Source of the DNA: Candidatus Hydrogenedentota bacterium
GTDB taxonomy: Bacteria > Hydrogenedentota > Hydrogenedentia > Hydrogenedentales > SLHB01
Assembly (NCBI GenBank): GCA_045863295.1
Contig: BTWA01000039.1
Span: forward strand, 1 to 57,193
Direction of reading: 5' to 3'
DNA: 57,193 bases
This document shows positions 6,331-54,805 of this stretch, one piece after another. Every line of letters begins with the position of its first letter. The stretch's first letter is position 1. The notes below the pieces were generated by a model that saw only the letters and a list, made by a program, of their open reading frames with translations, did no database searches and was not told the origin of the DNA. The translations under genes and the position numbers were made by a program.

Positions 6331-6364
6331 GAACTGCCTTCCTGATGATGTGTATGGGCAAACG

Positions 6365-8353: not shown

Positions 8354-8374
8354 GGACTCTGGCGCGCGTTAGCA

Positions 8375-12213: not shown

Positions 12214-12298
12214 GGCGTGATCCTCCTGGGCGTGATACGCTGAATCCGTTCACGCATCCAGGTCAAGTGCACGTCAGGTGAGCAATAGCTTTCATTTG

Positions 12299-29706: not shown

Positions 29707-29839
29707 GAGCAGAGGGCTCCTCCCGATATGATACAGATGAATCATCGTCTGTTGCAACTGCATCTTTCGGAAATTTGCCTTCGGATGGCATGTATCACCC
29801 GTCTATCGCAACTCATTAGTTGACAATGTGATATACGCG

Positions 29840-30601: not shown

Positions 30602-31024
30602 ATGTTGCCCAAGACTTCAGAGTATGCCTTACGGGCCGTGGTGTGGCTGGCCCGCGAACCAGGGCGAACGGCTTCGGCCGACCTCCTGGCCGAGCGCACG
30701 AAGGTACCACGCCGCTATTTGCACAAGGTTTTGCAAGACTTGGTGGGTGGCGGGCTCGTGCGATCGCAGCCCGGTCCCGGCGGCGGCTACGCGTTGGCGC
30801 AACGGCCTGAGGATATCACGATCCTCGACGTGGTCAGTTCCGTGGCGCCGCTGGAGCGTATCCGCAGTTGCCCGCTTGGGCTGCCATCGCACACGAAGCT
30901 CTGCCCTCTCCACAGCGAATTGGACCAGGTCTACGCCGCGGCGGAACGTGCGCTGGGGCGCGTGACGATTGCGAAACTGCTCCGTTCGGCAAGCCCAATC
31001 GTTCCGTTGTGCGAGGTGATGTAG
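30602..31024 (+). CDS. Rrf2-family regulator
   Basis: [39 protein letters not shown]. Confidence 0.92.
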
Positions 31025-31056
31025 CTGCAACGCCAATTGAAAAAAGGAGAATCCCG

Positions 31057-31788
31057 ATGAGCACGATTTCCGTTCAAGACATAGTGGGAGAGATCATCAC
31101 ACGGCGCCCAATGCTTGCGCATGCGTTTGAAGCGGCCGGCATGGACTACTGCTGCGGCGGCAAAAAGACACTGGAGGAGGCGTGCCGGGAAAAAGGCGTT
31201 GATCCGCAGGCGTTTGCCGCCAAGCTGGAGCAGTCAGAGGCGGCGTCCGAGGGGGAGCCGCTCGTGGATGCGGCGGCCATGTCGCTCACGGAGTTGGCCG
31301 ACCACGTCGAGCACACGCACCATGCTTACCTCCGCTCGGAGTTGCCCCGGCTTGATGCGCTCACAGAGAAAGTGGCTTCTGTGCACGGAGGGGAAGACGC
31401 TCGCCTGCACGATGTTCGCAAGACGGTGCGTTCGCTGACAGCCGAAATGACCAGCCACATGATGAAGGAAGAGCAAATCCTGTTTCCCATGATCCGTCGG
31501 CTGGAAGCGAGCGATGCGCTTCCGAAGTTCCACTGCGGCTCGATCACCAATCCGATCCGGCAAATGGAGATGGAGCATCACGACGCAGGCGCGGCGCTCG
31601 AGCGAATGCGCACGCTGACTGATGACTATACCCCGCCTGACTGGGCTTGCAACACGTACCGGGTGATGCTCGACGCCCTGGCGCGCTTGGAATTCGACAT
31701 GCATCAGCACGTTCACAAGGAAGACAACGTGCTGTTCCCGAGGGCCGTCAAGGTCGAAGCCGATCTTGCCGAAAGGGCGAAGGTGTGA
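31057..31788 (+). CDS. ric: Iron-sulfur cluster repair di-iron protein (Ric/YtfE/ScdA)
   Basis: AGGAGA RBS; DYCCGG, HHAYLR, HMMKEEQILFP, EH, HVHKEDNVLFP. Confidence 0.93.
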   Translation: MSTISVQDIVGEIITRRPMLAHAFEAAGMDYCCGGKKTLEEACREKGVDPQAFAAKLEQSEAASEGEPLVDAAAMSLTELADHVEHTHHAYLRSELPRLDALTEKVASVHGGEDARLHDVRKTVRSLTAEMTSHMMKEEQILFPMIRRLEASDALPKFHCGSITNPIRQMEMEHHDAGAALERMRTLTDDYTPPDWACNTYRVMLDALARLEFDMHQHVHKEDNVLFPRAVKVEADLAERAKV

Positions 31789-32300
31789 TGGCCGTGAACG
31801 TGGGCGGCAAACCACTGGCCGATTTCAGCGAACCCATCGAGATGATGAAAGACTGCCATCGGCGTATCGAGCATTTTCTCGAAGTACTGCGAGAGGCCGA
31901 ACGGCGATTTCGCAAGAGCGATCTCAACGAGGAAGGACGTCACGCATTAGAGGCCTCGCTGAACTACTTCGCGAACTTCGCACCACGCCATACGGCTGAC
32001 GAGGAACAATCTCTGTTCCCACGGATGCGATGCTCCGGCAACCCGGACGCACGAGAGGTCATGGCCGATCTAGAACGCTTGGAAAACGACCATCGCGGTT
32101 GCGAGGAGCTCCATTCGCTCGTTGACCGCGTGGTGCGCAGTTGGCTCGAAACGGGTCGACTGGACGACGCTCAACGAGAGCGCCTCCGGGCGGCGCTTGA
32201 TGAACTGGAAAAGGCTTATGCGGCTCAAATTCAACTTGAGGAAGGCGAAGTCTTTGTGGTTGCAGTTCGCATTCTAGAGGCTATCCCAAAACCTGATTGA
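31788..32300 (+). pseudogene. Hemerythrin-domain protein, 3' end cut by IS5
   Basis: CHRRIEHF, HTADEEQSLFP, LENDH. The last codons (EAIPKPD*) come from the IS end after CTAG at 32274. Confidence 0.75.
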
Positions 32301-33108
32301 GCAACAAGAGAGCGCAACTCAAGTGCAGATATCCCTGGAAGAGTTTGGTGGATTTTTCTCATCGGATGCACAGGCGCCGGTAGTTCTGGAGCCACCCGAT
32401 GGTGCGTTCAACGGTCCATTGCCGCCCGTAGCGGCGCAGGGGACGTCCATCTTGGGTGCTGTTTTCGATCTTGCGATTGGATTTATGCAGGGCGATCATT
32501 TCGATACCCATTTCGGCCATGGCGTCGTCGAGCCTGTCGCTGTCGTAGGCCTTGTCCCCGATGATACGCTCCGGCGTTTCTTCAGTGAGCATGAAGTCGA
32601 AAAGTCCCTGAACCAGGGTGGATTCATGTGGGTTTGCAGACACGGTATCCACAGCCACCGGGAGACCACGCGCATCGACAAGAACCATTATTTTCACGCC
32701 TTTTCCGACGCGCGTGCAGCCAATGCCGTCGCCACCGCCCTTGGCCTTGCTGGAGGTACCGTCCACGAAACATTCATAGAGCCGATACGCTCCACGCTCT
32801 TCAACAAGCCGTCCTGCGTCACGCATGATTTGTTCGAACACCCCCTCGCTGACCCAATGCTGAAACCAGCGATGGACTGTACTCTTGGCGCCGAACTCGG
32901 CAGGAAGATCTTTCCACTTCGCGCCATTGTCCAGCATCCAGAAGATACCTTGAATGACCGTACGCTTGTTGGCCGTGGGCCGACCGCCAAGGGGATTGCG
33001 CGGCGGATCAGGAATCCGTTCGCACAACCAATCGAGTTGAGCATCGGTGAGTTTAAGCATAGCGCTAGTATACATAACTAGCGTTAAAATTAGGTTATGG
33101 GATAGCTT
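32278..33108 (-). mobile_element. IS5-family insertion sequence (~830 bp)
   Basis: 17-bp terminal inverted repeats AGGCTATCCCAAAACCT / AGGTTATGGGATAGCTT (15/17), flanked by CTAG at 32274-32277 and 33109-33112. Confidence 0.9.
32281..33060 (-). pseudogene. IS5-family transposase with a premature stop
   Basis: GAKWKDLP...STVHRWFQHW, VDGT, GDKAYDSD, WTVERTIGWL. TGA at 32359-32361, after which the frame continues EKSTKLFQGYLHL...VLG* to 32281. Confidence 0.85.
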
Positions 33109-33125
33109 CTAGGCGGATCGGCAAA

Positions 33126-33141
33126 GTCCGACAAACTGTTA
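33126..33141. repeat. 16-bp sequence, inverted copy of 56620-56635 (IS-end-like)
   Basis: GTCCGACAAACTGTTA. Confidence 0.7.
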
Positions 33142-34200
33142 ACCACCAATGTGATACATCTCGGCCTTTTCCGGGCGATGGGATCGACTGCAGCCCCGCT
33201 CTTCCGAGTAGCGATCCGTTCTTTGCACCCACAGACCCCGAAGCTGATCCACCAATAGCCCGTCGGTTACATCACCACGTAGGGAAGGACGGAGATCAAG
33301 TCCCCGAGCGGCGAAGAGGCAAGTGAAGAGGTGGCCATCGCAGGTTAGTCGCAGGCGGGAGCAGCCGCCGCAGAACGGCCGCGTGACGGATGCGATCACA
33401 CCGATCTCGCCCTGCCCGTCGGCATAACGATAGCGGCTGGCGACTTCGCCAGGATAGCTCGGTGCGACAGGCTCCAAGGGGAAGTACTCGTGAATACGGG
33501 CCATCACCTCGCGCGCGGGTACCACGCGATCCAGCTTCCACTGGTTCATGGTGCCCACATCCATAAACTCGATAAAGCGCAGCACAATACCGGTCCCACG
33601 AAAGTGGCGGGCCAGATCTACGATGCTCCCATCATTCATGCCGCGCTGCAGCACGGTGTTCACCTTGATTGATTCGAATCCCGCATCCCGCGCGGCCGCG
33701 ATGCCGTCGAGGACGAGATCAGGGTGTACGTCGCGCCCGCACATCTGGCGCAGCACGGTTGGATCGAGGCTATCTAGGCTGACCGTGATGCGATTCATGC
33801 CAGCATCCCTGAGGGGCCGTGCGTAGCGCGGCAGGAGTAGACCGTTTGTGGTGAGCGCGAGATCCTGGATGGTGGGAAGACCCGCCAGCATGGACACAAG
33901 TTGGTCGAGATTATGGCGCAGGAGGGGCTCGCCGCCGGTCAGGCGAATCTTATGCACGCCGAGGTCGGCCGCAATGCGTGCGATCCGTGCAATCTCCTCA
34001 AAGCTCAGCAGGGCCTCGCGCGGCTGGAAACAGTGATTTTCTGGATAGCTTTCGGCGGGCATGCAGTAGGCGCAGCGAAGATTGCAGCGGTCCGTGACGG
34101 AGATCCGGAGATCACGCAGGGGGCGGCCCAGGCGGTCCCGAACGACGCCATCCCGTGCCGCCCTGAGGGATTCTGGTGCTTCACGGGTCATGCAGGCCAT
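33139..34200 (-). CDS. moaA: GTP 3',8-cyclase MoaA
   Basis: LRISVTDRCNLRCAYC, RLTGGEP, FCGGCSRLRLT..G.LFTCLF, C-terminal IGG. Confidence 0.96.
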   Translation of the reverse strand: MACMTREAPESLRAARDGVVRDRLGRPLRDLRISVTDRCNLRCAYCMPAESYPENHCFQPREALLSFEEIARIARIAADLGVHKIRLTGGEPLLRHNLDQLVSMLAGLPTIQDLALTTNGLLLPRYARPLRDAGMNRITVSLDSLDPTVLRQMCGRDVHPDLVLDGIAAARDAGFESIKVNTVLQRGMNDGSIVDLARHFRGTGIVLRFIEFMDVGTMNQWKLDRVVPAREVMARIHEYFPLEPVAPSYPGEVASRYRYADGQGEIGVIASVTRPFCGGCSRLRLTCDGHLFTCLFAARGLDLRPSLRGDVTDGLLVDQLRGLWVQRTDRYSEERGCSRSHRPEKAEMYHIGG

Positions 34201-34210
34201 CTCGCGTCCT

Positions 34211-34558
34211 TCATGTGCGAGCTGCCTCGGCTTGCGCCCAGGCGACCAAGTCGTCCAAGGTCATGGAATCGAGCAGGCCTTCCTTTTTCTTGATGCCGAG
34301 ATCGTGGAGGCGCAGATGGAGCACCATGGGACGGCCGACTTTCGCGGAGACGCCTTCTCCGCACGCAATTGGACATCCGTCGATGATCCACACGGGCCGA
34401 CGCTCCGCCAGCTTCATGAAGACGGGCTTTTCCGCCCCCAGTCCGGCTAGGCAGGACATCTCGGCGATTCCGCGCCGGTCCAGTTCGAGGGCGAGTTGGT
34501 TGGCAAGCTGGCCGGCAGGCGAACAGCCCGAACAAGCAAAGACGACGGGCCTTAACAT
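34211..34558 (-). CDS. DGC-domain putative zinc-binding protein
   Basis: ACSGCS, MSCLAG, IDGCPIAC. Start uncertain. Confidence 0.75.
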   Translation of the reverse strand: MLRPVVFACSGCSPAGQLANQLALELDRRGIAEMSCLAGLGAEKPVFMKLAERRPVWIIDGCPIACGEGVSAKVGRPMVLHLRLHDLGIKKKEGLLDSMTLDDLVAWAQAEAART

Positions 34559-34731
34559 GGATTGCACTATTTGTACTCCTATTGGCAAATGCTCAAGAAA
34601 GCAACAGGGACCTTGTCGGGCATGTCCGCGAGTAATGCCACCACTGATTTTCGTCCATATGGGACAACTCATGAGTACGTGGATATGTCACATTCCCCTG
34701 CGGACATGGCCCGGTTATTCGGGGTGATAGG

Positions 34732-35883
34732 TCAGTTGAACCGGAGCGAAATCCGGCTATACCCGCCTGCCGGATGGCGTGCATATGCCGGTTGCTCTGC
34801 CGGATACGACTCGATGTTCCGGCACCGGTTAAGACACTCTTCCATAAACGTCAGCAATTCCAGGCGCGCGAGGGGAGCGCCTGGACATACATGAATACCG
34901 GCACCATAGAGGAGACTTAGGCGGCCATCGCGTTCCGGCATGATCTCGTCCGGCCGGTCGAATACCGATTCATCCCGGTTGGCGGCAGTCCACATGATAT
35001 TCAATTCGTCGCCCGCCTGAATCGGACAGCCGCCGATGGTTGAGTCGTATTTTGCTCGCCGTCGGTTGGACACAAGCGGTCCATGGGCGCGCAGAATCTC
35101 GTCGATAGCCGCCGGTAGTTTCTCGCGTTGGGCACGTAGCATGGCCTGGAGTCCGGGATGAACAGCCATGGCCTGAAGAACAATACCGACGGAGGCGGAA
35201 ATAGTGCCAATCTCACCTACAGTCCAATTTCGAAAAAGGCTCGTAAGTTCTTCGTCGTTCAAGGGACGCCCGTCCACACGCGCTTCCAGGAGCGTGTTCA
35301 TAACGCGGTTTCGGGCCGCTCTATTCTGGCGAAAACGGCGCAACAAGTCCGCCACCACGGCCTCGAACTGCGCCGCGAGCATCCTCAACATTGCCCGGTC
35401 GGCCGCTCGTGCCGCGGCCTGGTTGCGGCGCGTCCATTCCACTAGTAGCGATGCCAGCGCATCCGGCCAACCGAGAAACGCACACTGCGCCCGCCCCGCG
35501 AACGGATAAGCGATCTCGTCCATCACTTCGACCTTCTCCGCCCCTACCGCACCGACGATAAGTTCCTCCGCAATGGCCCGGCAAGGCGCTTCAATAGGCG
35601 CCAGGTACTCCCGGGAAAAGAGCGGCTCAATAAGACGGCGGAAAGGCGTGTGTGCGGGGGGATCCATTCCGTTGGGTACAGATAGGCGGGAAGACACCTC
35701 GTTGCTGAACGTTTCGTGATCCAGTAAGACGTTGGTAGTTTCGCGATGGCCAAGCACGTACCACTTACCGGGCCCGCCGTGCGCCACGGGACACAAGCGC
35801 CGCATGGCATCGCTTTCTTCGATGAGGTTGTCGGCATCTGGGTCGCTGTGGGGTTCCCACGCGGAATCAAACCTAGCTGTCAT
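34732..35883 (-). CDS. Cytochrome P450
   Basis: AGGAG RBS before ATG at 35883; MDPP.H, EILR, AANRD..VF, YGAGIHVCPG heme ligand. Confidence 0.92.
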   Translation of the reverse strand: MTARFDSAWEPHSDPDADNLIEESDAMRRLCPVAHGGPGKWYVLGHRETTNVLLDHETFSNEVSSRLSVPNGMDPPAHTPFRRLIEPLFSREYLAPIEAPCRAIAEELIVGAVGAEKVEVMDEIAYPFAGRAQCAFLGWPDALASLLVEWTRRNQAAARAADRAMLRMLAAQFEAVVADLLRRFRQNRAARNRVMNTLLEARVDGRPLNDEELTSLFRNWTVGEIGTISASVGIVLQAMAVHPGLQAMLRAQREKLPAAIDEILRAHGPLVSNRRRAKYDSTIGGCPIQAGDELNIMWTAANRDESVFDRPDEIMPERDGRLSLLYGAGIHVCPGAPLARLELLTFMEECLNRCRNIESYPAEQPAYARHPAGGYSRISLRFN

Positions 35884-35948
35884 GTATAATCTCCTGGCGA
35901 TTTGCTGCTTGCCGCTTCCGGTACCGTCCTGCACTTCGGGGCGACCAG

Positions 35949-37049
35949 TTACGGGGCGCGCGAAGGGGTCTGCCCGCAGAATACGGCGCCGATCGCGCGC
36001 ATGCGATTCAACACGCCTAGAAAGGCAGCGCCCCAGGCCAGGAAGGCAGCATAAATCGTAACAGTGGGAATTGCGTCCAAATGTGGCACGGGAATCAACG
36101 CGCTCAGACGCCACGAGCATGCCGTGTACATGCCCAGCGGGAAGACCATGCTCCAATAGGCGGGATCGTAGACAATGGGAACTCGCTGAGCCACATGCCG
36201 CCATACACCGAGAACAATGAGAAACGGAATCCACCATGTCGCCGTTGCCCAGAAGACGAGTGTCGCACCGGTAATAAACTCGCGCAGGCCCGCCAGGAGA
36301 GGCGACCTATCTGCGGCGGCCAGGAGCACGCACCCGCCGAGGGTGGAAATGGCCATGGCACCCATGTTTATCCAATACGGCGGCAGTACGTCTTCCCGCG
36401 CCATCGGAAAGAAGGAGTATCGATAAAAGATCAGCGAAATCAACCAGATATAGAGCATACCGGCTGCCAGCCACAAGTTCAGTGCAACAAAAAGTACAAA
36501 TTCGGACCAAGTGGCAAAATCATCGGCGAGCAGCGCGGCAAGGATCGCCACTGCCTGTGTCGCTACTACCAACACGAGCCACCCGCCATGGATACTGTGC
36601 GCGATATCCGGCTTGTTCGGCGAAAGCGTGAGGAATCCGAGCACGGCGTACAGTAAAGCACACCACAGCACAGCCCCCGCCGCCAAGAACACCATGGCAA
36701 TACTGTGCGACCCGAAGATGATCAGTGTCTGGTTCCCAAGAATGCAAGTACCCGCCACCAGCGTCATGAAGCCCACGGCGCGCCGCGGGTCTTGTAAATC
36801 ACCTAGTATCGCCCGCGGGAAATAAGCGACTCGAGCCGTATAGAGAATACAGAGCACGGCGGCAAAGACGTAGTTGCCCCCCCCCAGCACCCAGGCACAG
36901 CGTTCGAACCCAGTGAAGTGAGCTGCGATGGCCACGATACCCGTGGCCATCACCATCGCAAAATATGCGGGATGTAACGATCTGACTAACGCCGCGACTT
37001 GCTCTATGGGCGCGGCTCCGTGCTCGCTTGAGCGTTCCGTGGCAGTCAT
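35949..37049 (-). CDS. TDT/SLAC1-family anion transporter
   Basis: PAYFAMVMATGI, PPYWINMGAMAIS, WSMVFPLGMY; about 10 TM helices. Confidence 0.9.
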   Translation of the reverse strand: MTATERSSEHGAAPIEQVAALVRSLHPAYFAMVMATGIVAIAAHFTGFERCAWVLGGGNYVFAAVLCILYTARVAYFPRAILGDLQDPRRAVGFMTLVAGTCILGNQTLIIFGSHSIAMVFLAAGAVLWCALLYAVLGFLTLSPNKPDIAHSIHGGWLVLVVATQAVAILAALLADDFATWSEFVLFVALNLWLAAGMLYIWLISLIFYRYSFFPMAREDVLPPYWINMGAMAISTLGGCVLLAAADRSPLLAGLREFITGATLVFWATATWWIPFLIVLGVWRHVAQRVPIVYDPAYWSMVFPLGMYTACSWRLSALIPVPHLDAIPTVTIYAAFLAWGAAFLGVLNRMRAIGAVFCGQTPSRAP

Positions 37050-37230: not shown

Positions 37231-37824
37231 TCAACAGTCCCTGCGTTGACGTCCTTTCGCCGCGCTAAGCGCTTCGAAACCGTGGAGCAGATTCTGGAGG
37301 CCCCACAGGCCGGCGACTGTGGCTAGCCCCACCATGACCACGTGAAACCAGCTCCGCTTCAAGTTGATGAAAAAGAGTGCCCACGGGTCGCCGTGATTGG
37401 GGTCGGTGGGCAGCGTACCCTCCAGGTACTCGCGGACATCCGGGAGCCCGTCACCGTCCAGATCGCTTTGCGGTCCCAAGGCATCCGCAAGCTTTGCGGG
37501 ATCCTGACGGATCTGGAGAAACTGCTGCTTGCCCAGTACTTGAATGATGTGATTTCCGAACTCATTGAGGATTGGGCTTTCCACCTCTTCACCCGGCGTG
37601 AAGGCCGCCCGGGCCTTGCCGAGGGCCTCCATCTGAAGTGGCGTCAGGCTCCCGATCTGTCCCGGCTTGAGGCCCTCCGGACCGTCGGCATGGGCGTGGC
37701 ACATGGCGCAGTTCACATTACGGCCCGACTGGGTTTCGATAAAGGTCTGGAATTCCGGATAGGCCCAAGCGGCGCTGCCAAGCGCCACGAAGGCCACTGC
37801 CGCAACGGCGATACGCAGCTTCAT
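37231..37824 (-). CDS. Membrane-anchored monoheme cytochrome c
   Basis: Signal peptide, CAMCH, Ca-binding-like DLDGDGLPD, C-terminal TM helix. Start overlaps the cytochrome b stop. Confidence 0.75.
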   Translation of the reverse strand: MKLRIAVAAVAFVALGSAAWAYPEFQTFIETQSGRNVNCAMCHAHADGPEGLKPGQIGSLTPLQMEALGKARAAFTPGEEVESPILNEFGNHIIQVLGKQQFLQIRQDPAKLADALGPQSDLDGDGLPDVREYLEGTLPTDPNHGDPWALFFINLKRSWFHVVMVGLATVAGLWGLQNLLHGFEALSAAKGRQRRDC

Positions 37825-38930
37825 TGGTGGGCTCCTTTAAAGAACTCGTAGATCTGCTGGCCGAATACCGTCATGGCTACCAGATAAAAGGTGACGGCCA
37901 GGGCGATGTTGCGAAGGGTCTTCCTGCTCGTGCCTCGAAAGATCCACGGGACCCCGAGCAGGACGGCCATCGCGATTCCGGAAAGGATCATGATCATCCA
38001 GAAAGGCAGCAGCTCCAGCGGATAGTAGACGAAGAAGAAATACCACTCCGGCTTTATCCCGTCGGGCGTGGAGCCTTGGGGGTCAAAGGGCTCGAAGAGT
38101 GGATAGGAGAAGAAGGCCTCGAAGGGGAGACAGAGGGCCACGACGAAGAGAACGAAGAAGACCAGGCCCCAGATGGAGAAATCCTTCAGGGCGAAAATCG
38201 GGAAGAACTTCTCTGTCTTGCCTGTGGGCTTGTCCACGCCCTTGCTCATGCCATGGATCTGCACCATGAAAAGATGCTGGCCCAGGACCGCAAAGACCGC
38301 CAGCGGCAGCACCACGACGTGTAGTGCATAGAAGCGGCTCAACGTGGCCTGGCCCACCGCCGCCTCGCCTTGGATCAACTCCTTGATCTGGCGCGGAATA
38401 TCGGCAAGCGTGCCGGGGAGATAGGCCCCGGCCTCTTCGACGGACTGAAGCCCCACCTTGGTGGCGTTGACCGCGATCTGGTGCCAGGGCAGGAGGTAGC
38501 CGGTAAATCCGAAGCCGAAGGTTATCAGCAGCAGGAGTACGCCCGAGACCCAGGTGATCTCTCGCGGCTTCTCGAAGGCTTTCATGGCAAAGGCCGTGAT
38601 CAGGTGGGTTAGCACGCAGAAGATCATCGCCGAGGACGACCAAGTGTGAAGGTTGCGGATAAGAGCGCCCCCGCCCACGTGAAAGGTGATTAATTCCACC
38701 GAGGCGTGTGCGTCAGCGACCGTAGGCTGGTAGTAAAATAGTAGCAACAACCCGGTAACAAGTTGGATGCTGAAACAAAAGAGGGCCAGGCCGCCGAAGT
38801 AATAACCCCAGCTCATCCGGTGGACGGGCACTTCCTTTTTCTGAAAAAGGGTTTCAAAACTGAGCTTTTCCAGCGGAAAACGCTCATGAAGCCAGTCCGT
38901 TGCCTGTTGGACCCGGTCTTGCGCGCGCAT
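37821..38930 (-). CDS. Cytochrome b of a Rieske/cytb complex (with subunit-IV region)
   Basis: Four heme His (NLHTW...THL; ALHVV...QHL), GFTGYLLPW, Qo-site PEWY. Confidence 0.92.
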   Translation of the reverse strand: MRAQDRVQQATDWLHERFPLEKLSFETLFQKKEVPVHRMSWGYYFGGLALFCFSIQLVTGLLLLFYYQPTVADAHASVELITFHVGGGALIRNLHTWSSSAMIFCVLTHLITAFAMKAFEKPREITWVSGVLLLLITFGFGFTGYLLPWHQIAVNATKVGLQSVEEAGAYLPGTLADIPRQIKELIQGEAAVGQATLSRFYALHVVVLPLAVFAVLGQHLFMVQIHGMSKGVDKPTGKTEKFFPIFALKDFSIWGLVFFVLFVVALCLPFEAFFSYPLFEPFDPQGSTPDGIKPEWYFFFVYYPLELLPFWMIMILSGIAMAVLLGVPWIFRGTSRKTLRNIALAVTFYLVAMTVFGQQIYEFFKGAHQ

Positions 38931-40249
38931 CAAGCCATCTCCTCAAACTGTTTGGCGATGTAAACGCCGTAGCCGCCTGCTTGCGCAAGATCGACCTCGC
39001 CGGTCATTTCGGCGCCCGCACCCTTGCTCGCCACCAAGTTGCCAGCGCCATCCATCAACACCCAGCCCAAGAGGGGCAGAGGCGCTTTCGCAGGCGCGCC
39101 CGGCGTGGGCATTCCCGTTTTCACGTCAAACCAGGACACGTGGCACGGGCAGAGAATCCGCCCGTTGTTGATCGTGCTCGCTACCGTGCAGCCGAGATGA
39201 GTGCACTTGGCGGAAATCAGCAGCGGGAGGCCGCGTTCGTCCTTGAAAGCGAGAGCCGGGCGCATGTGGTAGTCGGTGAAGTAGCGCCCGTCCTTGTCCG
39301 AGAGCTCAGCGAGGGATGCCACGAAGATGTAGTCTTTCTCGATGCGTTCGATTTCCAGTGCCCGTTCCGCAGCGGCCAGCTCCAGCCGTTCGAGCTTCTT
39401 CTGGAGCAGTTCAGCCTGCTGCCGCGAATCAAGGGCTGGGCCGCGGAAAAACCGGCCCAGCTTGTCGAGGACACCCGCACTGAGCAGGAATAGTGCAGCG
39501 CCGGTCCCCAGGGCACCCCGGAGGAAGTACCGGCGGCTGTCCGCGTGGCGATGCTGCGGCGCACCACAAGCGGAGGGCTCAGGACGCGGCGTGGTCCAGA
39601 CCACCTTCTGCGGTGGCCGCCAAAAATAGGCAATGGGCACCGAGAAGATGTGGACTAACCGCGTGAACGGAACCACCAGAAAAAGACACCAGGCGAGCAC
39701 AAGGTGCAACTTCACCGCGGGCGGCAGGCCGGTGATGTATTCGGGCTTGGGTTGAAAGGTGGCCAAGCTCCAGAGGTAGGGCGTGGTGGTGCTGGCCGAC
39801 CAGGCGGCCCCCCAGCGCGCACTTGTCGCCACGGAGATGCCCACAAGCACTTGTGCGATGAGCAAGAGTAGCAGCAGGTAGTCCGCCGTGGTGGTTACCG
39901 CCGAGATTTTACCCGAGGTGGTGCGCCGGTAGAGGAGTACACAGAGCCCGGTCAGGGCAAGGAAGGCGGCGACGATTCCGATGACTTCAACTGTAATCAA
40001 AAAGATCGGGATGGCGGTCAGAGCCCGCCAAAGGCCCGGCACAAGCACTGGAACCACATGTCCCAACAGGAGAATGAGGATACCGACGTGCCACCCCATG
40101 CTTCCCCAGCGCAATTGGTTGCTCTCGAGAAACTGGGAACTGAGCGCCGAATAAGTGAAGCGCTGCAACCTGTAGCGGTAGATCGACAACACAATCATCA
40201 GCGCGAATGCGATGTAGGGGAATCCGACAAACAGAAAAAGATCAAGCAT
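38930..40249 (-). CDS. narI: NarI (nitrate reductase gamma) fused to a Rieske 2Fe-2S domain
   Basis: SSQFLE, WHVGILILLLGH, LH...PFTRLVH; then SRRYFLRG + TM; then CTHLGC and CPCH, all in one frame. Confidence 0.9.
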   Translation of the reverse strand: MLDLFLFVGFPYIAFALMIVLSIYRYRLQRFTYSALSSQFLESNQLRWGSMGWHVGILILLLGHVVPVLVPGLWRALTAIPIFLITVEVIGIVAAFLALTGLCVLLYRRTTSGKISAVTTTADYLLLLLLIAQVLVGISVATSARWGAAWSASTTTPYLWSLATFQPKPEYITGLPPAVKLHLVLAWCLFLVVPFTRLVHIFSVPIAYFWRPPQKVVWTTPRPEPSACGAPQHRHADSRRYFLRGALGTGAALFLLSAGVLDKLGRFFRGPALDSRQQAELLQKKLERLELAAAERALEIERIEKDYIFVASLAELSDKDGRYFTDYHMRPALAFKDERGLPLLISAKCTHLGCTVASTINNGRILCPCHVSWFDVKTGMPTPGAPAKAPLPLLGWVLMDGAGNLVASKGAGAEMTGEVDLAQAGGYGVYIAKQFEEMA

Positions 40250-40787
40250 GGATCAATGCTCCGGCAGTCACGTGCTTCACAAAGTGTTGAAGAGAAGCGA
40301 GGACATGGTGATAAGGGGTTTCCCCCTCCCGCAGGGATTGGCACATGAGTCTCAAAGGCAATGGCAGACAAAACCGCTGGACTTCATCCCAGGTATCTTC
40401 GGATGCCACTGCAGCGTAACCCAGCACCACGGCGAGGTGGTCCGGCAGTTCTCCTCCGCTGTCGTAGCCTGATTCGGCATAGGCCCCGCTGAATCCGGCC
40501 ATGAACTGGCCCCGCTGGGGATTCTCCGCGCCAAAGAGATAAACGCTCAGGTACGGTACGGCGAGCGGACTCAAATCGAAAGCGCGGGTGTAGAGTTCGC
40601 GGGCTTTCGCCAAAGTTGCGGCCTCCAGAAATTGGACGAAGCGCCAAAGTTCTTCCGCCGCCGGCGGGGAAAGGCTTGCGAGACGCTTTTCCAGTGCCGG
40701 AGCTATTTTATAGATATCCTGTTCTGGATAAGTGAGCAAAGTGGCAAAACACCCATATATCGTACGATATTCGACGGATTCTTTCAT
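40242..40787 (-). CDS. narJ: Nitrate reductase chaperone NarJ
   Basis: LLTYP, YTRAFDL, ELPDHL; located between narH and narI. Confidence 0.9.
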   Translation of the reverse strand: MKESVEYRTIYGCFATLLTYPEQDIYKIAPALEKRLASLSPPAAEELWRFVQFLEAATLAKARELYTRAFDLSPLAVPYLSVYLFGAENPQRGQFMAGFSGAYAESGYDSGGELPDHLAVVLGYAAVASEDTWDEVQRFCLPLPLRLMCQSLREGETPYHHVLASLQHFVKHVTAGALIHA

Positions 40788-42280
40788 AGCCCTCGCTCCG
40801 GAGTGGATACGGCGCCGAGCCCGCAGGATCCTTTGCACATCTCGGGCGAGCAGCCGCTCCCCGCGATATTCACTTCGCGCTGGATGGGCGGCATCACGTA
40901 GCGCTCGTTCATGGGGGCGAGGGTAGTCATCTTATAGATCGCCTCGGCGTCTTCCCCCGAAAGCGCCGCCTCGCGCAGCACGGCATGGACCCTGGCCGCA
41001 TCCACATCGTCCACATCCTGGGCGCGCTTGAAGTAGCGAACCGCCATCTGCCGTTTCATCACGTCGCGCACGATCTTCTCGTTGCCGGCACTGAAGAGGG
41101 AGGCTAGGTAGCGGATAGGCAGGCGCGCACTGTCGAGATTGGAGAAGAACTCGGTGACATTCTGCTCGTAAATTCCGTCACCCGCACGGCCGCTGACCGG
41201 CAGGAGCGGGGGCACGTAATAGAGCATGGGCAGGGTGCGGAACTCGGGATGGAGCGGCAGGGCCAGCTTCCACTTCATCACATAATTCCACACGGGGGAG
41301 TGTTGGGCGGATTCGACAAACTGGGCGCTGATGCCGTTGGCTTCGGCACCGGTAATCACCACCGGATCAAAAGGATCGAGCAGGACGCTGCGGTGAGACT
41401 CCACCAGCGCGTCTTCCGGCGCCTTCATGGCCTCCTCCACGCGATCCGCGTCGTAGAGCAACACGCCCATGTAGCGAATTCGGCCCACGCAGGAGTGAAA
41501 GCACGCAGGAGGCTGGCCGGTCTCGATCCGGGGGTAGCAGAGGATGCATTTTTCGGCCTTGCCCGTTTTCCAGTTGTAGTAGACCTTCTTGTAGGGGCAG
41601 GCGGCTACGCAGGCACGCCAGCCCCGGCAGGTGTCCTGATTGACGAGCACAATGCCATCTTCGCCGCGCTTGTAGAGCGCACCGCTGGGGCAGGCTGCCA
41701 CGCAGCTCGGATTCGCGCAGTGGTTGCAGATGCGGGGCAGATACATCATTGTGATCTGCTCTACATCGAAGAGAACGCGCCGCTCGTCTTCCGTCAGGGC
41801 GTCAAGATTGGGGTCGTTGGCCGCGTAAACGGGAGAGCCGCCCAGATCATCGTCCCAGTTCGGCCCCGCCTCGATGTCCATGTCTTCACCAGTGATCTGG
41901 GAGATGGGGCGGGCCGTGGGCTGATCGTCGCCCTCGGGGGCGTTGGTGAGATCGCCGTAGCGATAGGTCCAGGGCTCGTAGTATTCATCCAGCCCCGGCT
42001 GGTTTGGATTGTAGAAGAGTTTGTGGAAGTAATTGCCTTTTTTTTGGCTCTTCAGCTGGAGCTCGCGCTGGGCGTTCAGTTCCCAGCCGCCTTTGTAATT
42101 GAGCTGGTCCTCCCAGCGCGTCGGATAACCCGTGCCCGGCTTGGTCTCCACATTGTTCCACCACATGTATTCCGCTCCCGGACGGTCGGTCCAGATGTTT
42201 TTACAGGCTACGCTGCACGTGTGGCAGCCAATGCATTTGTCGAGGTGGAACACCATGGAAACGTGTGCGCGTACATTCAT
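40784..42280 (-). CDS. narH: Respiratory nitrate reductase beta subunit
   Basis: LDKCIGCHTCSVACK, ICNHCANPSCVAACP, CRGWRACVAACP, CILC...CFHSC. Confidence 0.96.
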   Translation of the reverse strand: MNVRAHVSMVFHLDKCIGCHTCSVACKNIWTDRPGAEYMWWNNVETKPGTGYPTRWEDQLNYKGGWELNAQRELQLKSQKKGNYFHKLFYNPNQPGLDEYYEPWTYRYGDLTNAPEGDDQPTARPISQITGEDMDIEAGPNWDDDLGGSPVYAANDPNLDALTEDERRVLFDVEQITMMYLPRICNHCANPSCVAACPSGALYKRGEDGIVLVNQDTCRGWRACVAACPYKKVYYNWKTGKAEKCILCYPRIETGQPPACFHSCVGRIRYMGVLLYDADRVEEAMKAPEDALVESHRSVLLDPFDPVVITGAEANGISAQFVESAQHSPVWNYVMKWKLALPLHPEFRTLPMLYYVPPLLPVSGRAGDGIYEQNVTEFFSNLDSARLPIRYLASLFSAGNEKIVRDVMKRQMAVRYFKRAQDVDDVDAARVHAVLREAALSGEDAEAIYKMTTLAPMNERYVMPPIQREVNIAGSGCSPEMCKGSCGLGAVSTPERGL

Positions 42281-42291
42281 TGTCGTGACTC

Positions 42292-45200
42292 CTACCAAAC
42301 CGGTTTGTCGAGTTTGCGCACCACCACAAAGGTGTCGCGGTTCACGCCCTGGGGTCCCCAGTAATTAAAGCCATACGAGAACTGGGCGTAGCCGCCGATC
42401 ATGAAGAGGGGTTTGAGGCGCGCGCGTGTCAGGCTGTTGTGCCCGCCCGCGCGTCGTTTGCCCCGATGTTGGCTTTTGGGATTGCCCACCGTCCGCTCGG
42501 TGGCGTGGTAGATGAAGCAGATGCCCCGGGGAATGCGCGCACTGACGCAGGCCCGGGTGACCACGGTGCCGTGGTCGTTCAGCACCTCTACCCAGTCGTT
42601 GTCGTGGATACCCAGCATGGCGGCGTCGTGTTCGTTCATCCAAAAGGGCTCGATGCCGCGCGAGAGTGTCTCCATACGCAAGGTGTCGCCGAAAGTCGAG
42701 TGGATATGCCACTTGCCGTGGGGGGTGAGGTAATTGAGGACGAGTGAGCCCGGCTCGGTGCCCGTCACGTCGAGATCGCGTGTGGTTCGCAGGTCGGCCC
42801 GGGGCTTGAATGTGGGCAGGTGCTCGCCATAGGCCACATAGGCCTCATGATCGAAATAGGTGTGCTGGCGCCCCGTCAGCGTGCGCCAAGGAATACGCTC
42901 TTCCAGATTCTGGCAGTAGGCGGAGTAGGTCCGGGTGCCGTTGGTGATACCGGTCCAATAGGGTGTGGTCAGCACGCGGCGCGGCTGAGTGCAAAGATCG
43001 GCGAAGGTATAACGCACATTGCGGTTGCCCGCCGCCAGGTGCGTGTGGTCGATGCCGGTCTTGTGGGACTCGGTCTCGTAGGCCCGATGCGCCAGTTCGC
43101 CATTGGTCTCGGCCGCGAAGTGAAGAATGGCCTCGCACACGTCACGGTCTATCCGCAGCGATGGGTATTGTTCGCCCTCCCAGGCTTCCACCGGATGGGT
43201 GAGGAGATACTGGTCGTAAAGATCATCAACCTTGTAGGTGCAGCCGTGAACGCCGATGCCGTTGTTGCGCAGGTTGCGGCCGAGAGAGATGAATTTTTGA
43301 TAGACCTGGGTGTAGTTCCGCTCGACGACGCTCATGTTCGGCATGGTCTTGCCAGGAATGGCCTCGCACTCGCCCTTGGCCCAATCGCGGATACGCGGCT
43401 GAGCGATTTCGCCTGGGGTATCGTGCAGGAGGGGTGAGCAGACAAAGTCCTGAACCGGATCCGGAAGATAGCGCTCGGCCATCTTGCTGGTGGCTTTGGC
43501 GATCTCCTGGAAGATTTTCCAGTCGGTCTTGGCTTCCCAACAGGGTGGCACGGCGGCCTGAAGCGGGTGTATGAAGGAGTGCATGTCGGTCGAACTGAGA
43601 TCGTCTTTCTCGTACCAGCTTGCCGTGGGCAGGACGATGTCGGAGTAGAGCGCAGAGGTGTCCATGCGGAAATTGATATCGACAATAAGGTCCATCTTTC
43701 CCAGCTCGACCTTGTCGTGCCACGTGACTTCCTTCACATCCTCTTGCGCTTGTTCCTCGGCGATACTGTTGTGGTGCGTGCCCAAGTAGTGCTTGAGGAA
43801 GTATTCGTGGCCCTTGGCGGAGGCCTGAATCGCGTTGCCCCGCCAGATGTACCACACGCGGGGGAAGCACGCGGGATTGTCAACGTCTTCCATGGCAAAT
43901 TTGAGGCTACGGTCCTTCAGGCGCGAGACCACATGGTCCACGGGGTTTACACCGCGCGCCGCGGCCTCTTTCACCAGTTCGAAATTGTGCTCCGTAAACT
44001 GGGGGTAACAGGGCAGCCAGCCGCAGCGCACGGCGAGGGCCTGCTTGTCCGCCGTGTGGCCCTCGGCGATGGGATTGGCTTTGTCGGCCACGGGGCAGAA
44101 CTCGCCGAACTTCCGGTCGTAGCGCCACTGGTCGCTGTGCATGTAGTGGAAGGAAGGCGCGTTTTGCAGGCGGGGTGGCCCGTTCCAGTCGGTGGCAAAG
44201 GCGATGGGGGCCCAGCTCGCCTGAGGCGCAAGCTTTTCCTGCCCCACATAGTGGTTCAGCCCGCCCCCGCTCCGGCCGACGCAGCCGCAGAAGAGCAGGG
44301 CGTTAATGCAGGCGCGGTAGATGAGGTTGTTGTGGTACCAGTGGTTCACGCCGGCGCCGATGATGATGCTGCACTTGCCGCCGGTCTTTTCGGCGGTGAT
44401 GGCCCACTGGCGCGCAAAATCGATTACCGTTTCCGCCTTGATGCCGGTGTACTGTTCCTGCCACGCGGGCGTGAAGGGGTGGGTGTCGTCGTCGTAACCG
44501 GTGGGCCACTGGCCCTCGAAACCACGGTTCACGCCATGCTGAGCGAGCTGGAGGTCGTAGACGGTGGCGACAAGCACAGGGCCATCCGCCGTCTGGATTT
44601 CGCGCACGGGCACATGACGCAGACGCCCCTGGCCCTGGATGCCTTCGGAGAAATCATCAAAATACGCGCTGACCGTCTTGTCTGCGCAATCTCTCAGGGA
44701 AAGCAGGGCGTCGATGGGCGCGCCGTCCCGGCTGTCTTCCTGCTTGATGTTCCACTGGCCTTTTTCCGTCTGCCAACGGTGACCGATCTGGCCCGCTGGG
44801 ATACGCAAGCGGCCTTCCGTGTCCAGCACGAAGCTTTTCCACTCGGCATGCTCTTCGCCCTGGGTCTCTGCGATTTGAGAAGTGCGCAGCAGTGAGCCGG
44901 GCCGGTAGTGGCCCTTCGTGTCGGGCTCCAGCACGACAAGGAATGCCGCATCGGAGTTCTCCCGCATGTACTGCTGAAAGAAGGGCACGGCGCGGTCCGC
45001 ATGGAACTCTCGGAGGATCACGTGGTTTACCGCCATCCAGAAGGCGGTGTCGCTACCCTGGTTGATGGGGATCCATTCGTCCGCAATCTTGGAGGTCTGA
45101 CTGAAGTCCGGCGAAAAGACAACGACCTTGGCTCCCCGGTGGCGCGCTTCCACCAGGAAGTGCGCATCGGGCGTGCGGGTCATGAGCACGTTGGAGCCGA

Positions 45201-45909
45201 CGGTGGCGATAAACTTCGAGTGGAACCAGTCGGCGCTTTCCGCCACGTCGGTCTGCTCGCCCCAGACCTCGGGGGAAGCGGGCGGCAGATCGCAGTACCA
45301 GTCGTAGAAGCTGAGGGCGATGCCACCCATGAGCTGGAGAAAGCGCGCGCCTGCCGCATAGCTGATCATGCTCATGGCGGGAATAGGCGAGAAGCCGACG
45401 AGGCGATCAGGGCCGTATTTCTGGACGGTGTAGATGTTGGAGGCGGCGATGAGCTCCTGGGCTTCGCGCCAGGAAACGCGCTGGAAGCCGCCCTTGCCTC
45501 GGGCCTGCTGGTAGCGCTTGCGGCGCTCGGGATTGGCCGTGATCGATTCCCACGCCGCGACCGGATCGTTCCCGTGCTCCGCTTTGGCCTCGCGCCAGAG
45601 ATCGAGGAGCGCCCCGCGCATATACGGATACTTGATCCGCAGGGGCGAGTAGATGTACCACGAGGTGGAAATGCCGCGCTGGCAACCCCGGGGCTCGTGG
45701 TTCGGAATCGCCTTGTCGATGGTGGGATAGTCGAGGGCCTGCATTTCCCAGGTCACGATGCCCTGCTTCACATAGACGTTCCAACTGCACGATCCAGTGC
45801 AGTTGACCCCGTGGGTCGTACGCACCACCTTATCGTGGGCCCAGCGGTTCCGGTAAAACTCCTCCCAGTCCCGCTGTTCCGGCGCAAATAAGTCCAGAAT
45901 CCAACCCAT
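42292..45909 (-). CDS. narG: Respiratory nitrate reductase alpha subunit (cytoplasmic type)
   Basis: Start MGWILDLF at 45909; [36 protein letters not shown]; no Tat signal. Confidence 0.96.
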
Positions 45910-46805
45910 CAGTTCTTCCTCCTGCGATTTGCGCCCAAGTCGCTGCGGCGGCAGGCGTCCGCCACCATGCGCGCCCGCGTTCCCCCGACCCGTTTCGCCG
46001 TGGATTTGCCCAGGAACACCAGCGCCAGGGCCGTGCCGCCGATGCCAGCCAGATGCATCGGATGACTGGCTGGGGCCGCGGGGTTCTTGGAGACTTCTTC
46101 GAGGTACTTCACAATGTGGAGTGCCTCCTGCTTGTTCACCGGATGGGGGGTATAGATTGCCCGCATGACGGGAAAGCCGGGCGATTCGGTGGTCGCCTGC
46201 AGTGGCTGCGCACCGAGACGGGTAAAGGAGTCCTCCAGCGATGCCGCTAGGTTGCCGCCGCGACCTTCCGCCTGGTGGCATGCGGCGCAAGCGGCCCCCC
46301 CATTGGCAAAAGCCTTGCGCCCGGTAAAGAGGGCACGGCCCATTTCAGCATTTGGGGGCGCCATGGAGGCGGCTTCCCGCAACTGCACCTGCTGGCGGTG
46401 CGCATCGAGGCGGGCCGCCGCGTCCGGTGCGAGCAGGAAGTCGGCCAGCATCGCCAAATCGCCTTCGCTGATGGGCCCTACGTTCTTCTCCATCCGCTTA
46501 ATGCCGTCTAGGACCGTCTGCCGCGGATAAGTGGCTGCGTTCTTGAGGTCTGGACCGGTCAATACGCCACCGCCGATGGTGTGGCACCCCATACACTTCA
46601 TCGCATAGGCTGCCGCTGCAGTATCCGCTTGGGGCGCTGCCTCGGCCGGGGCCGCTGCGGCAAGCGTGGGCGCGCTTTCCGCAAGGGCATCGGGTATCGC
46701 CTGGGTCGATACCCACGGGGCCAATAACCCTGTCCCAAGGAAACAGGCCGTCACAAACTGCCCGCGCCCCCACGCGAAGGTTGTCTTACCCAATAAAAAG
46801 CTCAT
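45909..46805 (-). CDS. Diheme cytochrome c, NarC-like
   Basis: CMGCH and CAACH, N-terminal hydrophobic leader, C-terminal anchor; stop overlaps the narG start. Confidence 0.85.
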
Positions 46806-46857
46806 ACTTTCTGCTCCCGTCGAGTGCATCCACTCCGGAATTTTGGGGTAATTAATT

Positions 46858-46999: not shown

Positions 47000-47455
47000 C
47001 TATTGGGACTCGAGTGTCTTGTGTTCTTGGAGCATCTTACGCTCTAAGGTCAGGGCGGCCAGCTTATCGAGGGTGGTATGGGACAGATTCTCGAGGAGGT
47101 TTATCTTCGAGATTACCCATATATCATGAAGGGGACAGGGGTTGGCCTTGCCGCACTCGGCGAAACCAAGCACGCAATGGTCATATGTATCCTCCCCCTC
47201 AACGGCCTGAATTACTTCTAGCAGGGTGATCTCGCCGGGATCTCGGGTGAGCGAGTACCCCCCGCCCGGTCCCCGATGAGCTTCGAGAAATCCCCCCTGT
47301 ACGAGGGCTTGGAATATCTTGCGTGTAAAATACTCTGGAATTTCCGCCTTTTCGCAGATCTCACGGGCCTGAAAGCGGTCTCTCGATTTGTCTGAAACCA
47401 CGAAGGTAAGCGCGCGTAGCGCATATTGGCAGCCTTTGGAATAGAGCTTGAACAT
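47000..47455 (-). CDS. Rrf2-family Fe-S regulator
   Basis: MFKLYSKGCQYALRAL, GPGGGYSL, CVLGFAECGKANPCPLH. Start placed at 47455 because 47459-47476 matches the operator box. Confidence 0.92.
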   Translation of the reverse strand: MFKLYSKGCQYALRALTFVVSDKSRDRFQAREICEKAEIPEYFTRKIFQALVQGGFLEAHRGPGGGYSLTRDPGEITLLEVIQAVEGEDTYDHCVLGFAECGKANPCPLHDIWVISKINLLENLSHTTLDKLAALTLERKMLQEHKTLESQ

Positions 47456-47458
47456 ATT

Positions 47459-47476
47459 ATGGATATTTTCCTCCAC
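47459..47476. promoter_or_regulatory. Putative Rrf2 autoregulatory box
   Basis: ATGGATA-tttt-CCTCCAC. Confidence 0.55.
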
Positions 47477-47945: not shown

Positions 47946-48047
47946 CCTTTCTGGATTCCCGGGCCCTCCGCACATAGGTTGTCCCGCTCTCGCCTCACTG
48001 GCGAGTCCACAATGCTTTGGCCGCTTGAAGTTGAGGGGTCTCCTTTC

Positions 48048-49631: not shown

Positions 49632-49663
49632 CCATCCGCGGGATTTAGATTGGGAGGGGTGCA

Positions 49664-53113: not shown

Positions 53114-53133
53114 CCACGAAGCGAGATATACCA

Positions 53134-53451
53134 ATGCCATACAACCATCCAGAATCCGGCGACCCCTTGGTGCTAAACGGCGTTGCCTTTGAAACTTCGC
53201 CCGAAACTGCCCTTGAGGCCGCCTATGTCTTCGCCGAGGAGTTGGCGCGGCTGGGCCATTCCGAGCAAGCCATTCTCTGTCTGTTTAAGTCCCCCGAGTA
53301 TCAAGGACCCTACAGCGCATTCCAGGTGCTGGGCGCCGATACGGTCTCCCGCGCGGTCAGGGAATGTTGCGAGACAATGTCCGCTTGCCGCGCCGTGATT
53401 CGGGCACGTCACGGAGCCGGCCCCTCTGTCGAAAAGACGACGCCCTTATGA
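53134..53451 (+). CDS. Small hypothetical protein between nxrA and nxrB
   Basis: 105-aa co-oriented ORF (DPLVLNGV...FAEELARLG...LFKSPEY). Confidence 0.65.
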   Translation: MPYNHPESGDPLVLNGVAFETSPETALEAAYVFAEELARLGHSEQAILCLFKSPEYQGPYSAFQVLGADTVSRAVRECCETMSACRAVIRARHGAGPSVEKTTPL

Positions 53452-53523
53452 GTTCAGGACCACAAACCATGTCTGAACCGCAGTACATCCCGCTCTTCCG
53501 AATGGACTGCCAAGGAGACCCTG

Positions 53524-54792: not shown

Positions 54793-54805
54793 GGAATCCG
54801 CGATC

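Follow-up and report, generated by a model that had tools for sequence, protein, structure and literature searches.

A nar operon with a Rieske domain fused to NarI

The 57,193-nucleotide (nt) stretch of DNA analyzed here, referred to at its full length as the window (positions 1 to 57,193 of contig BTWA01000039.1, assembly GCA_045863295.1, from a Candidatus Hydrogenedentota bacterium), carries an operon for a cytoplasmic nitrate reductase (Nar) in which the membrane subunit NarI continues in frame into a Rieske domain. The operon comprises seven minus-strand genes in the order narC-narG-narH-narJ-NarI::Rieske-cytochrome b-cytochrome c (aa, amino acids; E, expectation value):

45909..46829, minus strand: narC, the first gene of the operon, with Pfam Cytochrome_CBB3 and Cytochrom_C matches, two CxxCH motifs and a C-terminal hydrophobic helix
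42292..45915, minus strand: narG, cytoplasmic catalytic subunit, with Pfam Molybdopterin and Molydop_binding matches and no twin-arginine signal
40784..42298, minus strand: narH, iron-sulfur subunit, with Pfam Fer4_11 and Nitr_red_bet_C matches
40242..40838, minus strand: narJ, chaperone, with a Pfam Nitrate_red_del match (E 4.6e-10); its exact start is uncertain
38930-40249, minus strand: NarI::Rieske fusion, 439 aa
37821-38933, minus strand: cytochrome b, 370 aa, a b6-like N-terminal half fused to a subunit-IV-like C-terminal half
37231-37824, minus strand: monoheme cytochrome c, 197 aa, with a signal peptide, one CxxCH and a C-terminal anchor helix

The narC stop is overlapped by the narG start at 45915, narJ and the fusion overlap by 8 nt, the fusion and cytochrome b by 1 nt (TGATG), and cytochrome b and cytochrome c by 4 nt (ATGA). 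NarG matches E. coli NarG (1q16_A) over its full length (1300 bits, residues 14-1205). A preliminary description of this DNA had read here a complete NarI with four heme His residues running into a Rieske domain, followed by a PEWY cytochrome b and an anchored cytochrome c in translationally coupled genes. Both observations stand: Pfam matches to both domains lie in one 439-aa open reading frame (ORF), and the start and stop codons of the next two genes overlap.

The fusion is genuine and widespread

A word-indexed search of 5.8 billion proteins returned 681 matches, and all 120 of the matches listed carry both Pfam domains, at lengths of 433-479 aa and identities of 51-89%; the domain-architecture check suggested in the preliminary description therefore reveals no singleton. 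When one genome per species was scanned, at least 599 stretches matched and 569 were confirmed (the scan patterns sit in the Rieske boxes, and part of the 569 may be plain Rieske proteins). From these, 80 loci were kept, and the NarI-Rieske junction is spanned in all 80, across more than 12 phyla. Their titles name Hydrogenedentota, Sumerlaeota, Verrucomicrobiota, Obscuribacterales/Melainabacteria, Planctomycetota, Acidobacteriota, Omnitrophota, Myxococcota, Gemmatimonadota, Bacteroidota, Eisenbacteria, Nitrospiraceae and others; every one is a metagenome bin, with no cultured isolate seen among the 80. The fusion sequences were compared in an alignment of 76, comprising the window and 75 from these loci, a few of which perhaps represent the same genome twice (e.g. 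L006/L021).

Contigs from three other studies lie on the fusion gene; no RNA data set was among those listed for this stretch, and the one run labeled RNA-Seq is probably DNA. A 700-nt contig from an independent study spans 38956-39655 without a single mismatch or indel, taking in the linker, helix 6 and most of the Rieske domain; the junction is therefore not an artefact of assembly. The fusion gene is broken in three or four loci (L118, L120, L029/L096), with narG or narH split in some, which is what could be said for an assembly artefact, a frameshift or a decaying pseudogene having joined two genes. These broken loci look like frameshifts from error-prone assembly rather than natural split forms, because narG, too, is fragmented in two or more of them. 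Given that the 80 kept loci span the junction, that the 120 listed homologs hold both domains, that the ligands are conserved, and that independent contigs bridge the junction, an artefactual origin is already refuted and its probability negligible. No description of a NarI-Rieske fusion was found in the full-text literature, a search that did not cover subscription journals.

Composition of the fusion protein

The 439 residues of the fusion divide as follows:

39596..40249, minus strand: NarI domain, aa 1-218, five helices with four heme His
39467..39595, minus strand: linker (aa 219-238), twin arginines R239 and R240, and helix 6 (aa 243-261)
38930..39427, minus strand: periplasmic helix (aa 275-304), Rieske [2Fe-2S] domain (aa 307-432) and stop codon

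The N-terminal half is a complete NarI. Nitrate_red_gam (PF02665) matches residues 4-218 across profile positions 2-216 of 217 (E 1.1e-62, 212 bits against a cut-off of 22.9), and E. coli NarI matches the domain by sequence at E 5e-27. The heme ligands H54, H64, H182 and H200 align with H56, H66, H187 and H205 of E. coli NarI and are kept in 76/76 aligned fusion sequences. An AlphaFold2 model of the fusion, built on a 96-row alignment, has a mean predicted local distance difference test score (pLDDT) of 84.7, and a Foldseek comparison pairs it with E. coli NarI (1q16_C) at E 8.4e-11, with a TM-score of 0.80 on the target and a root-mean-square deviation of 3.5 over 217 columns. The position of E. 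coli Lys86 is occupied by the hydrophobic F83 in the window, with a one-residue alignment gap nearby. Lys or Arg occurs at this position in 3/76 fused sequences versus 83/113 unfused ones, and is absent too from 28/28 unfused members of the same clade. A second NarI was looked for in the genome to which the window belongs (G000) and not found.

The C-terminal half gives sequence matches to the Rieske chains of bc1 and b6f complexes, and residues 309-389 match Rieske PF00355 (E 9.8e-7, 29 bits against a cut-off of 20.3). Its Rieske boxes read C349-T-H351-L-G-C354 and C367-P-C369-H370, and the six box residues are kept in 76/76. In the AlphaFold2 model the NarI helices run to residue 209, residues 220-230 are disordered and form the sole stretch with a pLDDT below 50, a long helix (232-269) begins at the twin arginines, a second helix spans 275-304, and a compact beta domain occupies 307-432. 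This C-terminal part of the model matches small Rieske domains. Two residues of the domain, S372 and F374, are invariant in 96/96 sequences, and we take them to correspond to the Ser/Tyr versus Gly/Phe tuning positions of Rieske proteins. By the tuning rule stated in PMC3509893, Ser and Tyr give a high potential, and Gly and Phe a low one. One tuning residue of each kind thus suggests an intermediate potential for the fused cluster.

The NarI of E. coli starts outside the membrane and ends in the cytoplasm. Its helices number five (PMC3475470). Because the NarI C-terminus is cytoplasmic and a sixth helix then crosses the membrane, the Rieske domain is placed in the periplasm. The linker that leads to helix 6 is variable in sequence and nearly constant in length, at 17-21 aa across all 76 sequences and 18 aa in 54 of them. 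R240 is kept in 76/76 sequences and R239 in 75/76. Helix 6 is the least hydrophobic of the six, at 1.59 versus 1.90-2.55 for helices 1-5 (Kyte-Doolittle scale, best 19-residue window), and the 15 residues that follow it carry a mean net charge of +0.99 (range -2 to +3). The internal twin-arginine motif ahead of a weakly hydrophobic helix suggests that the fusion is inserted by both the general secretory (Sec) and twin-arginine translocation (Tat) pathways.

This arrangement resembles that of the Sec/Tat dual-targeted proteins, such as the actinobacterial Rieske protein Sco2149 and Sco3746, as described by Tooke et al. (Tooke 2017, PMC5449189). According to that account, they share with the fusion an internal twin-arginine motif and a weakly hydrophobic last helix, followed by positive charge and then by a cofactor domain outside the cell membrane; the weak hydrophobicity and the positive charge were shown to release the last helix from Sec to Tat (PMC5449189). 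The fusion differs in having five helices ahead of the motif, whereas the dual-targeted proteins described there have an even number (PMC5449189). The screen in that study, as described, was restricted to even helix numbers, and a class such as the fusion therefore lay beyond its reach (PMC5449189). The fusion also lends itself to testing the rules by which Sec hands a protein over to Tat after an odd number of helices.

The cytochrome b and cytochrome c partners

Cytochrome b matches PF00033 (139.8 bits, E 1.2e-40) and PF00032 (27.5 bits, E 3.9e-6), and its closest solved structure is cytochrome b6 (E 3.6e-47, over the first half). H96, H110, H205, H220 and the P295-E-W-Y298 motif are invariant in 48/48 sequences, and identity among related loci across phyla is 61-95%. 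Where b6 of spinach and cyanobacteria has the Cys near the N-terminus that binds heme ci covalently, the protein of the window has Phe in the alignment, so this mark of a heme ci (b6f and Bacillus type) is missing. A second Rieske/cytochrome b pair lies on another contig of G000 (locus L174, contig C1, 1791-6044), comprising a Rieske protein of 157 aa, which has a twin-arginine anchor of its own, and a 368-aa PEWY cytochrome b that is only 36% identical to that of the operon. The presence of this separate and divergent pair argues that the Nar-linked bc module is not the housekeeping complex. Flanking the L174 pair are genes for two membrane proteins, one of 367 aa and one of 495 aa with a cytochrome c domain at its end.

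The 197-aa cytochrome c has no Pfam match and no sequence match in the PDB. Its C39, C42 and H43 are invariant in 32/32 sequences, among which no conserved Met or second His was found that could serve as sixth heme ligand. We regard it as a candidate equivalent of cytochrome c1/f, with which it shares a signal peptide, one CxxCH and a C-terminal anchor alone. Cytochrome f ligates its heme through the N-terminal amino group. The predicted mature N-terminus of the operon cytochrome c features a conserved aromatic-Pro-Glu-Phe-Gln stretch 17 residues before the CxxCH, and by analogy its heme may be bound through the mature N-terminus in the same manner. A TSP3_bac (bacterial TSP3 calcium-binding) repeat occurs in 21/32 members. 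When a profile of the family was compared with 1.84 billion representative proteins, a few dozen full-length clusters were retrieved; the rest of the 561 matches cover the thrombospondin-type repeat alone. Two other leads were discarded: a fold search of this protein gave coiled-coil-like matches to its long helix alone (best Z 3.1), and a lead to Temptin_C (Atlas: 0.90, 167 shared features) was dropped when Pfam gave TSP3_bac only.

To place these partners relative to each other, cytochrome b, fusion residues 232-439 and the mature cytochrome c (the scored partner) were modeled as a complex. The median score was 0.72 versus 0.08 for the best of 3 controls, where the score is the model's own confidence and the 0.72 mark is reached by 116/157 solved complexes and 2/215 mismatched pairs, in a calibration outside which our own alignments and the inclusion of heme fall. 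Agreement between runs is 94% of contacts or higher, and partner pLDDT is at least 80. The cytochrome c anchor is predicted to lie against cytochrome b residues 244-274 and helix 6 of the fusion, and its head to sit on cytochrome b residues 267-292, just ahead of PEWY. The model thus supports binding of cytochrome c to cytochrome b and helix 6.

Exclusive co-occurrence of the bc genes with the fusion

The complete seven-gene order is found in 50/80 fused loci, with the misses at contig ends; of the 80, 77 have the cytochrome b gene, 72 the cytochrome c gene, 63 narG and 54 a narC-like gene before narG. A second scan, seeded with the nearest unfused NarI, added 78 new loci, of which 22 are fused and 56 unfused. 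The unfused loci are narC-narGHJ-narI operons, with a NarC-like gene before narG in 41/56. The nearest unfused relatives belong to Thermoanaerobaculia, and more distant ones to Ignavibacteria, Bacteroidota, Calditrichota and Rhodothermales. Where at least 2.5 kb of downstream sequence is available, 46/47 unfused loci feature no Rieske, cytochrome b or cytochrome c gene, and the sole exception (L120) is a broken fused locus. In a FastTree phylogeny of NarI domains, 76 fused and 28 unfused rows form one group of 104, and the fused state takes 5 changes on the tree, with the starred branches forcing at least 2. Since the unfused operons have narC and no bc genes, NarC predates the fusion, and the bc module arrived with it.

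The same pattern is found at the genome level. In a sample of 135 genomes from the phylum, 20 have the cytochrome c family, in one copy each at E of 5e-72 or below, with nothing weaker. All 20 hold the fusion; in a 21st genome with the fusion, that gene lies where its contig ends, and the family is absent from 6/6 genomes with unfused NarI alone. The bc genes therefore occur only with the fusion.

Proposed electron path and proton yield

Our analysis favors a hard-wired Nar-bc supercomplex that would couple a Q-cycle to cytoplasmic nitrate reduction, a reading to which we give an even chance. The covalent link, the fixed linker length (17-21 aa) and the exclusive co-occurrence of the bc genes argue for one assembly, and with the complex model (0.72 versus 0.08) they support the physically tethered Nar-bc unit put forward in the preliminary description. 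In such a supercomplex NarGH, facing the cytoplasm, would be bound to a NarI that continues through the linker and helix 6 into the periplasmic Rieske domain, and the latter would serve the dedicated cytochrome b/cytochrome c module together with the diheme NarC. For this assembly we infer the following path, direction and yield. Menaquinol would be oxidized at the Qo site of cytochrome b. One electron would pass from the Rieske center to the 197-aa cytochrome c, then to NarC, the distal and proximal hemes of NarI, NarH, NarG and nitrate, while the other would be recycled via the b hemes to Qi, giving about 4 charges (H+) per 2 electrons versus 2 in classical NarGHI. During biogenesis, helices 1-5 would be inserted by Sec/YidC, and the internal twin-arginine motif would direct helix 6 with the folded Rieske domain to Tat. 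Since MenB was found in G000, the pool quinone is probably menaquinone; the futalosine-pathway family PF02621 was searched for in this genome (96% complete) and not found. A search of G000 for PF02239 (cd1 nitrite reductase) gave weak propeller-like matches only.

Several points weigh against this reading, in addition to the limits of the complex score given above. The Thermoanaerobaculia narCGHJI operons lack bc genes, so NarI of this clade presumably oxidizes quinol itself, and the fused NarI may do so too. Loss of Lys86 was considered as a sign of a lost quinol site and dropped, as the same loss occurs in unfused relatives without bc genes. Electron transfer from the Rieske center and the c hemes to b hemes is likely to be uphill. 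Finally, G000 encodes three heme-copper oxidases, which could equally take electrons from the c cytochromes.

The main rival is a parallel arrangement, in which NarI stays a quinol oxidase, the fused bc module and NarC act as an anaerobic complex III that feeds other periplasmic or membrane acceptors (oxidases or nitrite, NO and N2O reductases), and the fusion serves co-expression and co-localization only. The unfused narCGHJI relatives do manage without a bc module, the oxidases are present in G000, and the NarC-containing Nar of Thermus, while complex III is repressed, is described as an electron source for nitrite and NO reductases (PMC7694296). However, the bc module always occurs with narGHJ and never alone, and its cytochrome c is found in 20/20 fusion genomes and 0/114 others. 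The partner reductases vary with the host phylum and have no genes close to the operon, a separate Rieske/cytochrome b pair is already present in G000, and retention of the fusion in more than 12 phyla exceeds what co-expression requires. We therefore consider the parallel arrangement unlikely, though it deserves to be kept in mind.

Returning to the supercomplex, its several parts can be joined into one broader statement, which we put forward tentatively and consider, as a whole, somewhat more apt to fail than to hold. Nitrate reduction in many uncultured phyla (Hydrogenedentota, Verrucomicrobiota, Planctomycetota, Melainabacteria, Acidobacteriota, Omnitrophota and others) would be driven by a covalent Q-cycle machine and not by quinol oxidation at NarI. 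NarI would act as a transmembrane wire, fed from the periplasm via NarC and a cytochrome c of a new kind whose heme may be ligated by its N-terminus; the yield would be about 4 H+ per 2 electrons, and the fusion would be the first 5+1-helix Sec/Tat protein.

The neighboring nitrite oxidoreductase-type cluster

A second gene cluster adjoins the operon in the window:

47979-56381, plus strand: periplasmic nitrite oxidoreductase (NXR)-type cluster, complete and divergent from the nar operon

Its 1149-aa alpha subunit has a Tat signal and matches Kuenenia NxrA (7b04_B) over the whole length (1677 bits). The cluster also comprises a 422-aa beta subunit, a 550-aa gamma subunit with two cytochrome c domains and an EB_dh heme b domain, a NarJ-like chaperone and a 275-aa protein of no family. 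An NXR of this anammox/Nitrospira type is unusual in a Hydrogenedentales genome.

An Rrf2 regulator separates the two clusters, which lie side by side in divergent orientation, and the bc module could in principle serve the periplasmic NXR-type enzyme (47979-55582) rather than NarGH. This reading is scarcely credible: an NXR-like alpha or beta subunit is found in the 7-kb flanks of 0/80 related loci, and the NXR cluster has its own diheme c/heme b gamma subunit. The preliminary description had offered the Q-cycle either to NarC/NarI or to this neighbor; the first route, with a higher proton yield, is plausible and has been proposed for Streptomyces Nar1 (PMC7931247), while the second finds no support in the 80 loci.

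It had also raised reverse electron flow. In such a scheme the Nar would oxidize nitrite in the cytoplasm as a Nitrobacter-type NXR, electrons would leave via NarI and NarC to an oxidase, and the bc module would run backwards to reduce quinone for NAD(P)H. The Nitrobacter NXR cluster is described as resembling narCGHJI, with a NarI homolog passing electrons to a NarC homolog (PMC7694296), and the second, Kuenenia-type NXR adjoins the operon here. Set against this, the hosts are diverse and mostly of heterotroph-like phyla, NarG resembles E. coli NarG closely over its full length, the window features no sign of autotrophy, and there is no evident reason to fuse a Rieske domain to NarI for reverse flow. 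We hold such a reversal to be very improbable, having found no support for it beyond the Nitrobacter analogy.

Other genes in the window

Two genes border the nar operon:

35949..37049, minus strand: SLAC1/TehA-type anion channel (PF03595, E 1.9e-43), downstream of the operon
47000..47476, minus strand: Rrf2-family regulator (PF02082, E 1.7e-28), upstream of narC

The channel is possibly an accessory nitrate/nitrite carrier, an uncertain assignment; its family adjoins the operon in 5/80 fused and 13/56 unfused nar loci. No NarK-type transporter lies near the operon in the window. The regulator is, with similar uncertainty, a possible NsrR-like protein, and several related loci likewise have an Rrf2 gene ahead of narC (e.g. 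L020, L021, L075, L089, L091).

Further downstream, 30868-36237 features genes related to nitrosative stress and cofactor supply, listed here together with a DUF1259 gene:

30868-31788: ScdA/RIC-type di-iron protein
31647-32300: second hemerythrin protein
33139-34200: MoaA
34732-36237: P450-like ORF, whose listed frame overlaps the SLAC1/TehA channel gene
26865-27803, minus strand: DUF1259 (PF07485) protein with two repeats (E 5e-74), adjoining a ChrB-like gene at 28708-29763

At 1559-15910 on the minus strand, a run of large genes resembles a defense or DNA-processing island. It encodes a DUF1156 protein (1093 aa), a caspase-family peptidase, a UvrD helicase, an SMC/AAA_15-type ATPase with a metallophosphatase, and an HTH-SNF2 helicase with a NOV_C domain.

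Implications and comparison with known systems

Each part of the operon is of a known kind; what is new is the fusion, the dedicated seven-gene operon, the cytochrome c family and the 5+1-helix Sec/Tat-type architecture. Gene fusion is the strongest genomic evidence for two proteins working together, and the NarI-Rieske link is found in the genomes of hundreds of species, many of them from sludge, groundwater and soil. If Q-cycle coupling is true, models of denitrifying communities assume too small an energy yield of nitrate respiration for these organisms, surveys based on narG merge two bioenergetically different enzymes, and the hypothesis raised for Streptomyces, described below, gains a directly testable natural example. 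The view given in a review (PMC3509893) is that bacterial electron donation to cytoplasmic Nar bypasses the Rieske/cytochrome b complex, and the sole counter-case that we found is the reported dependence of Streptomyces Nar1 on the bcc complex (PMC7931247).

One of the closest known systems is E. coli NarGHI (nitrate reductase A, PDB 1Q16), which shares NarG, NarH, NarJ, a five-helix diheme NarI with the same four His residues, and a cytoplasmic active site. To this the window adds helix 6, the Rieske domain, NarC, cytochrome b and cytochrome c, with Lys86 replaced by F83. In gene order the operon resembles Thermus thermophilus NarCGHI (narCGHJIKT), as both place a gene for a diheme membrane cytochrome c first, directly before narG. 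The nearest unfused relatives share the narCGHJI order with Thermus. There, NarC is reported to interact with NarI in two-hybrid assays and to carry electrons (PMC7694296). However, Thermus has no Rieske, cytochrome b or third cytochrome, and its NarC is thought to replace complex III, whereas in the window a complex-III-like module is fused on.

Bacterial bc1-type genes have been described beside narGHI in Thermogutta terrifontis, where a role of complex III in nitrate respiration was suggested (PMC5673643). By its description these are separate genes, with no NarC found and a NarG of deep lineage (PMC5673643). Among archaea, the haloarchaeal narB and narC genes accompany pNarGH, such that Rieske and cytochrome b genes lie in the nar operon, and Q-cycle coupling has been proposed (PMC2483277, PMC3509893). 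The preliminary description was thus right that Rieske/cytochrome b partners are described for the outward-facing archaeal Nar (PMC2483277, PMC3509893). As presented in these sources, the haloarchaeal NarGH faces outward and has neither NarI nor a fusion (PMC2483277, PMC3509893), unlike the window.

The best-supported of the possible electron paths is that proposed for the non-fused Nar1 of Streptomyces coelicolor. This spore enzyme is reported to require and co-purify with the bcc complex (Falke, Sawers and colleagues, PMC7931247). Its authors propose transfer from a diheme c to heme bD, with 4 H+ per 2 electrons instead of 2, and the menaquinol-nitrate span of about 505 mV was calculated to allow this Q-cycle route (PMC7931247). 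In Streptomyces, Nar1 and bcc-aa3 associate non-covalently from unlinked genes, within a supercomplex shared with aerobic respiration, whereas in the window the link is both covalent and genetic, and the bc module is dedicated to Nar.

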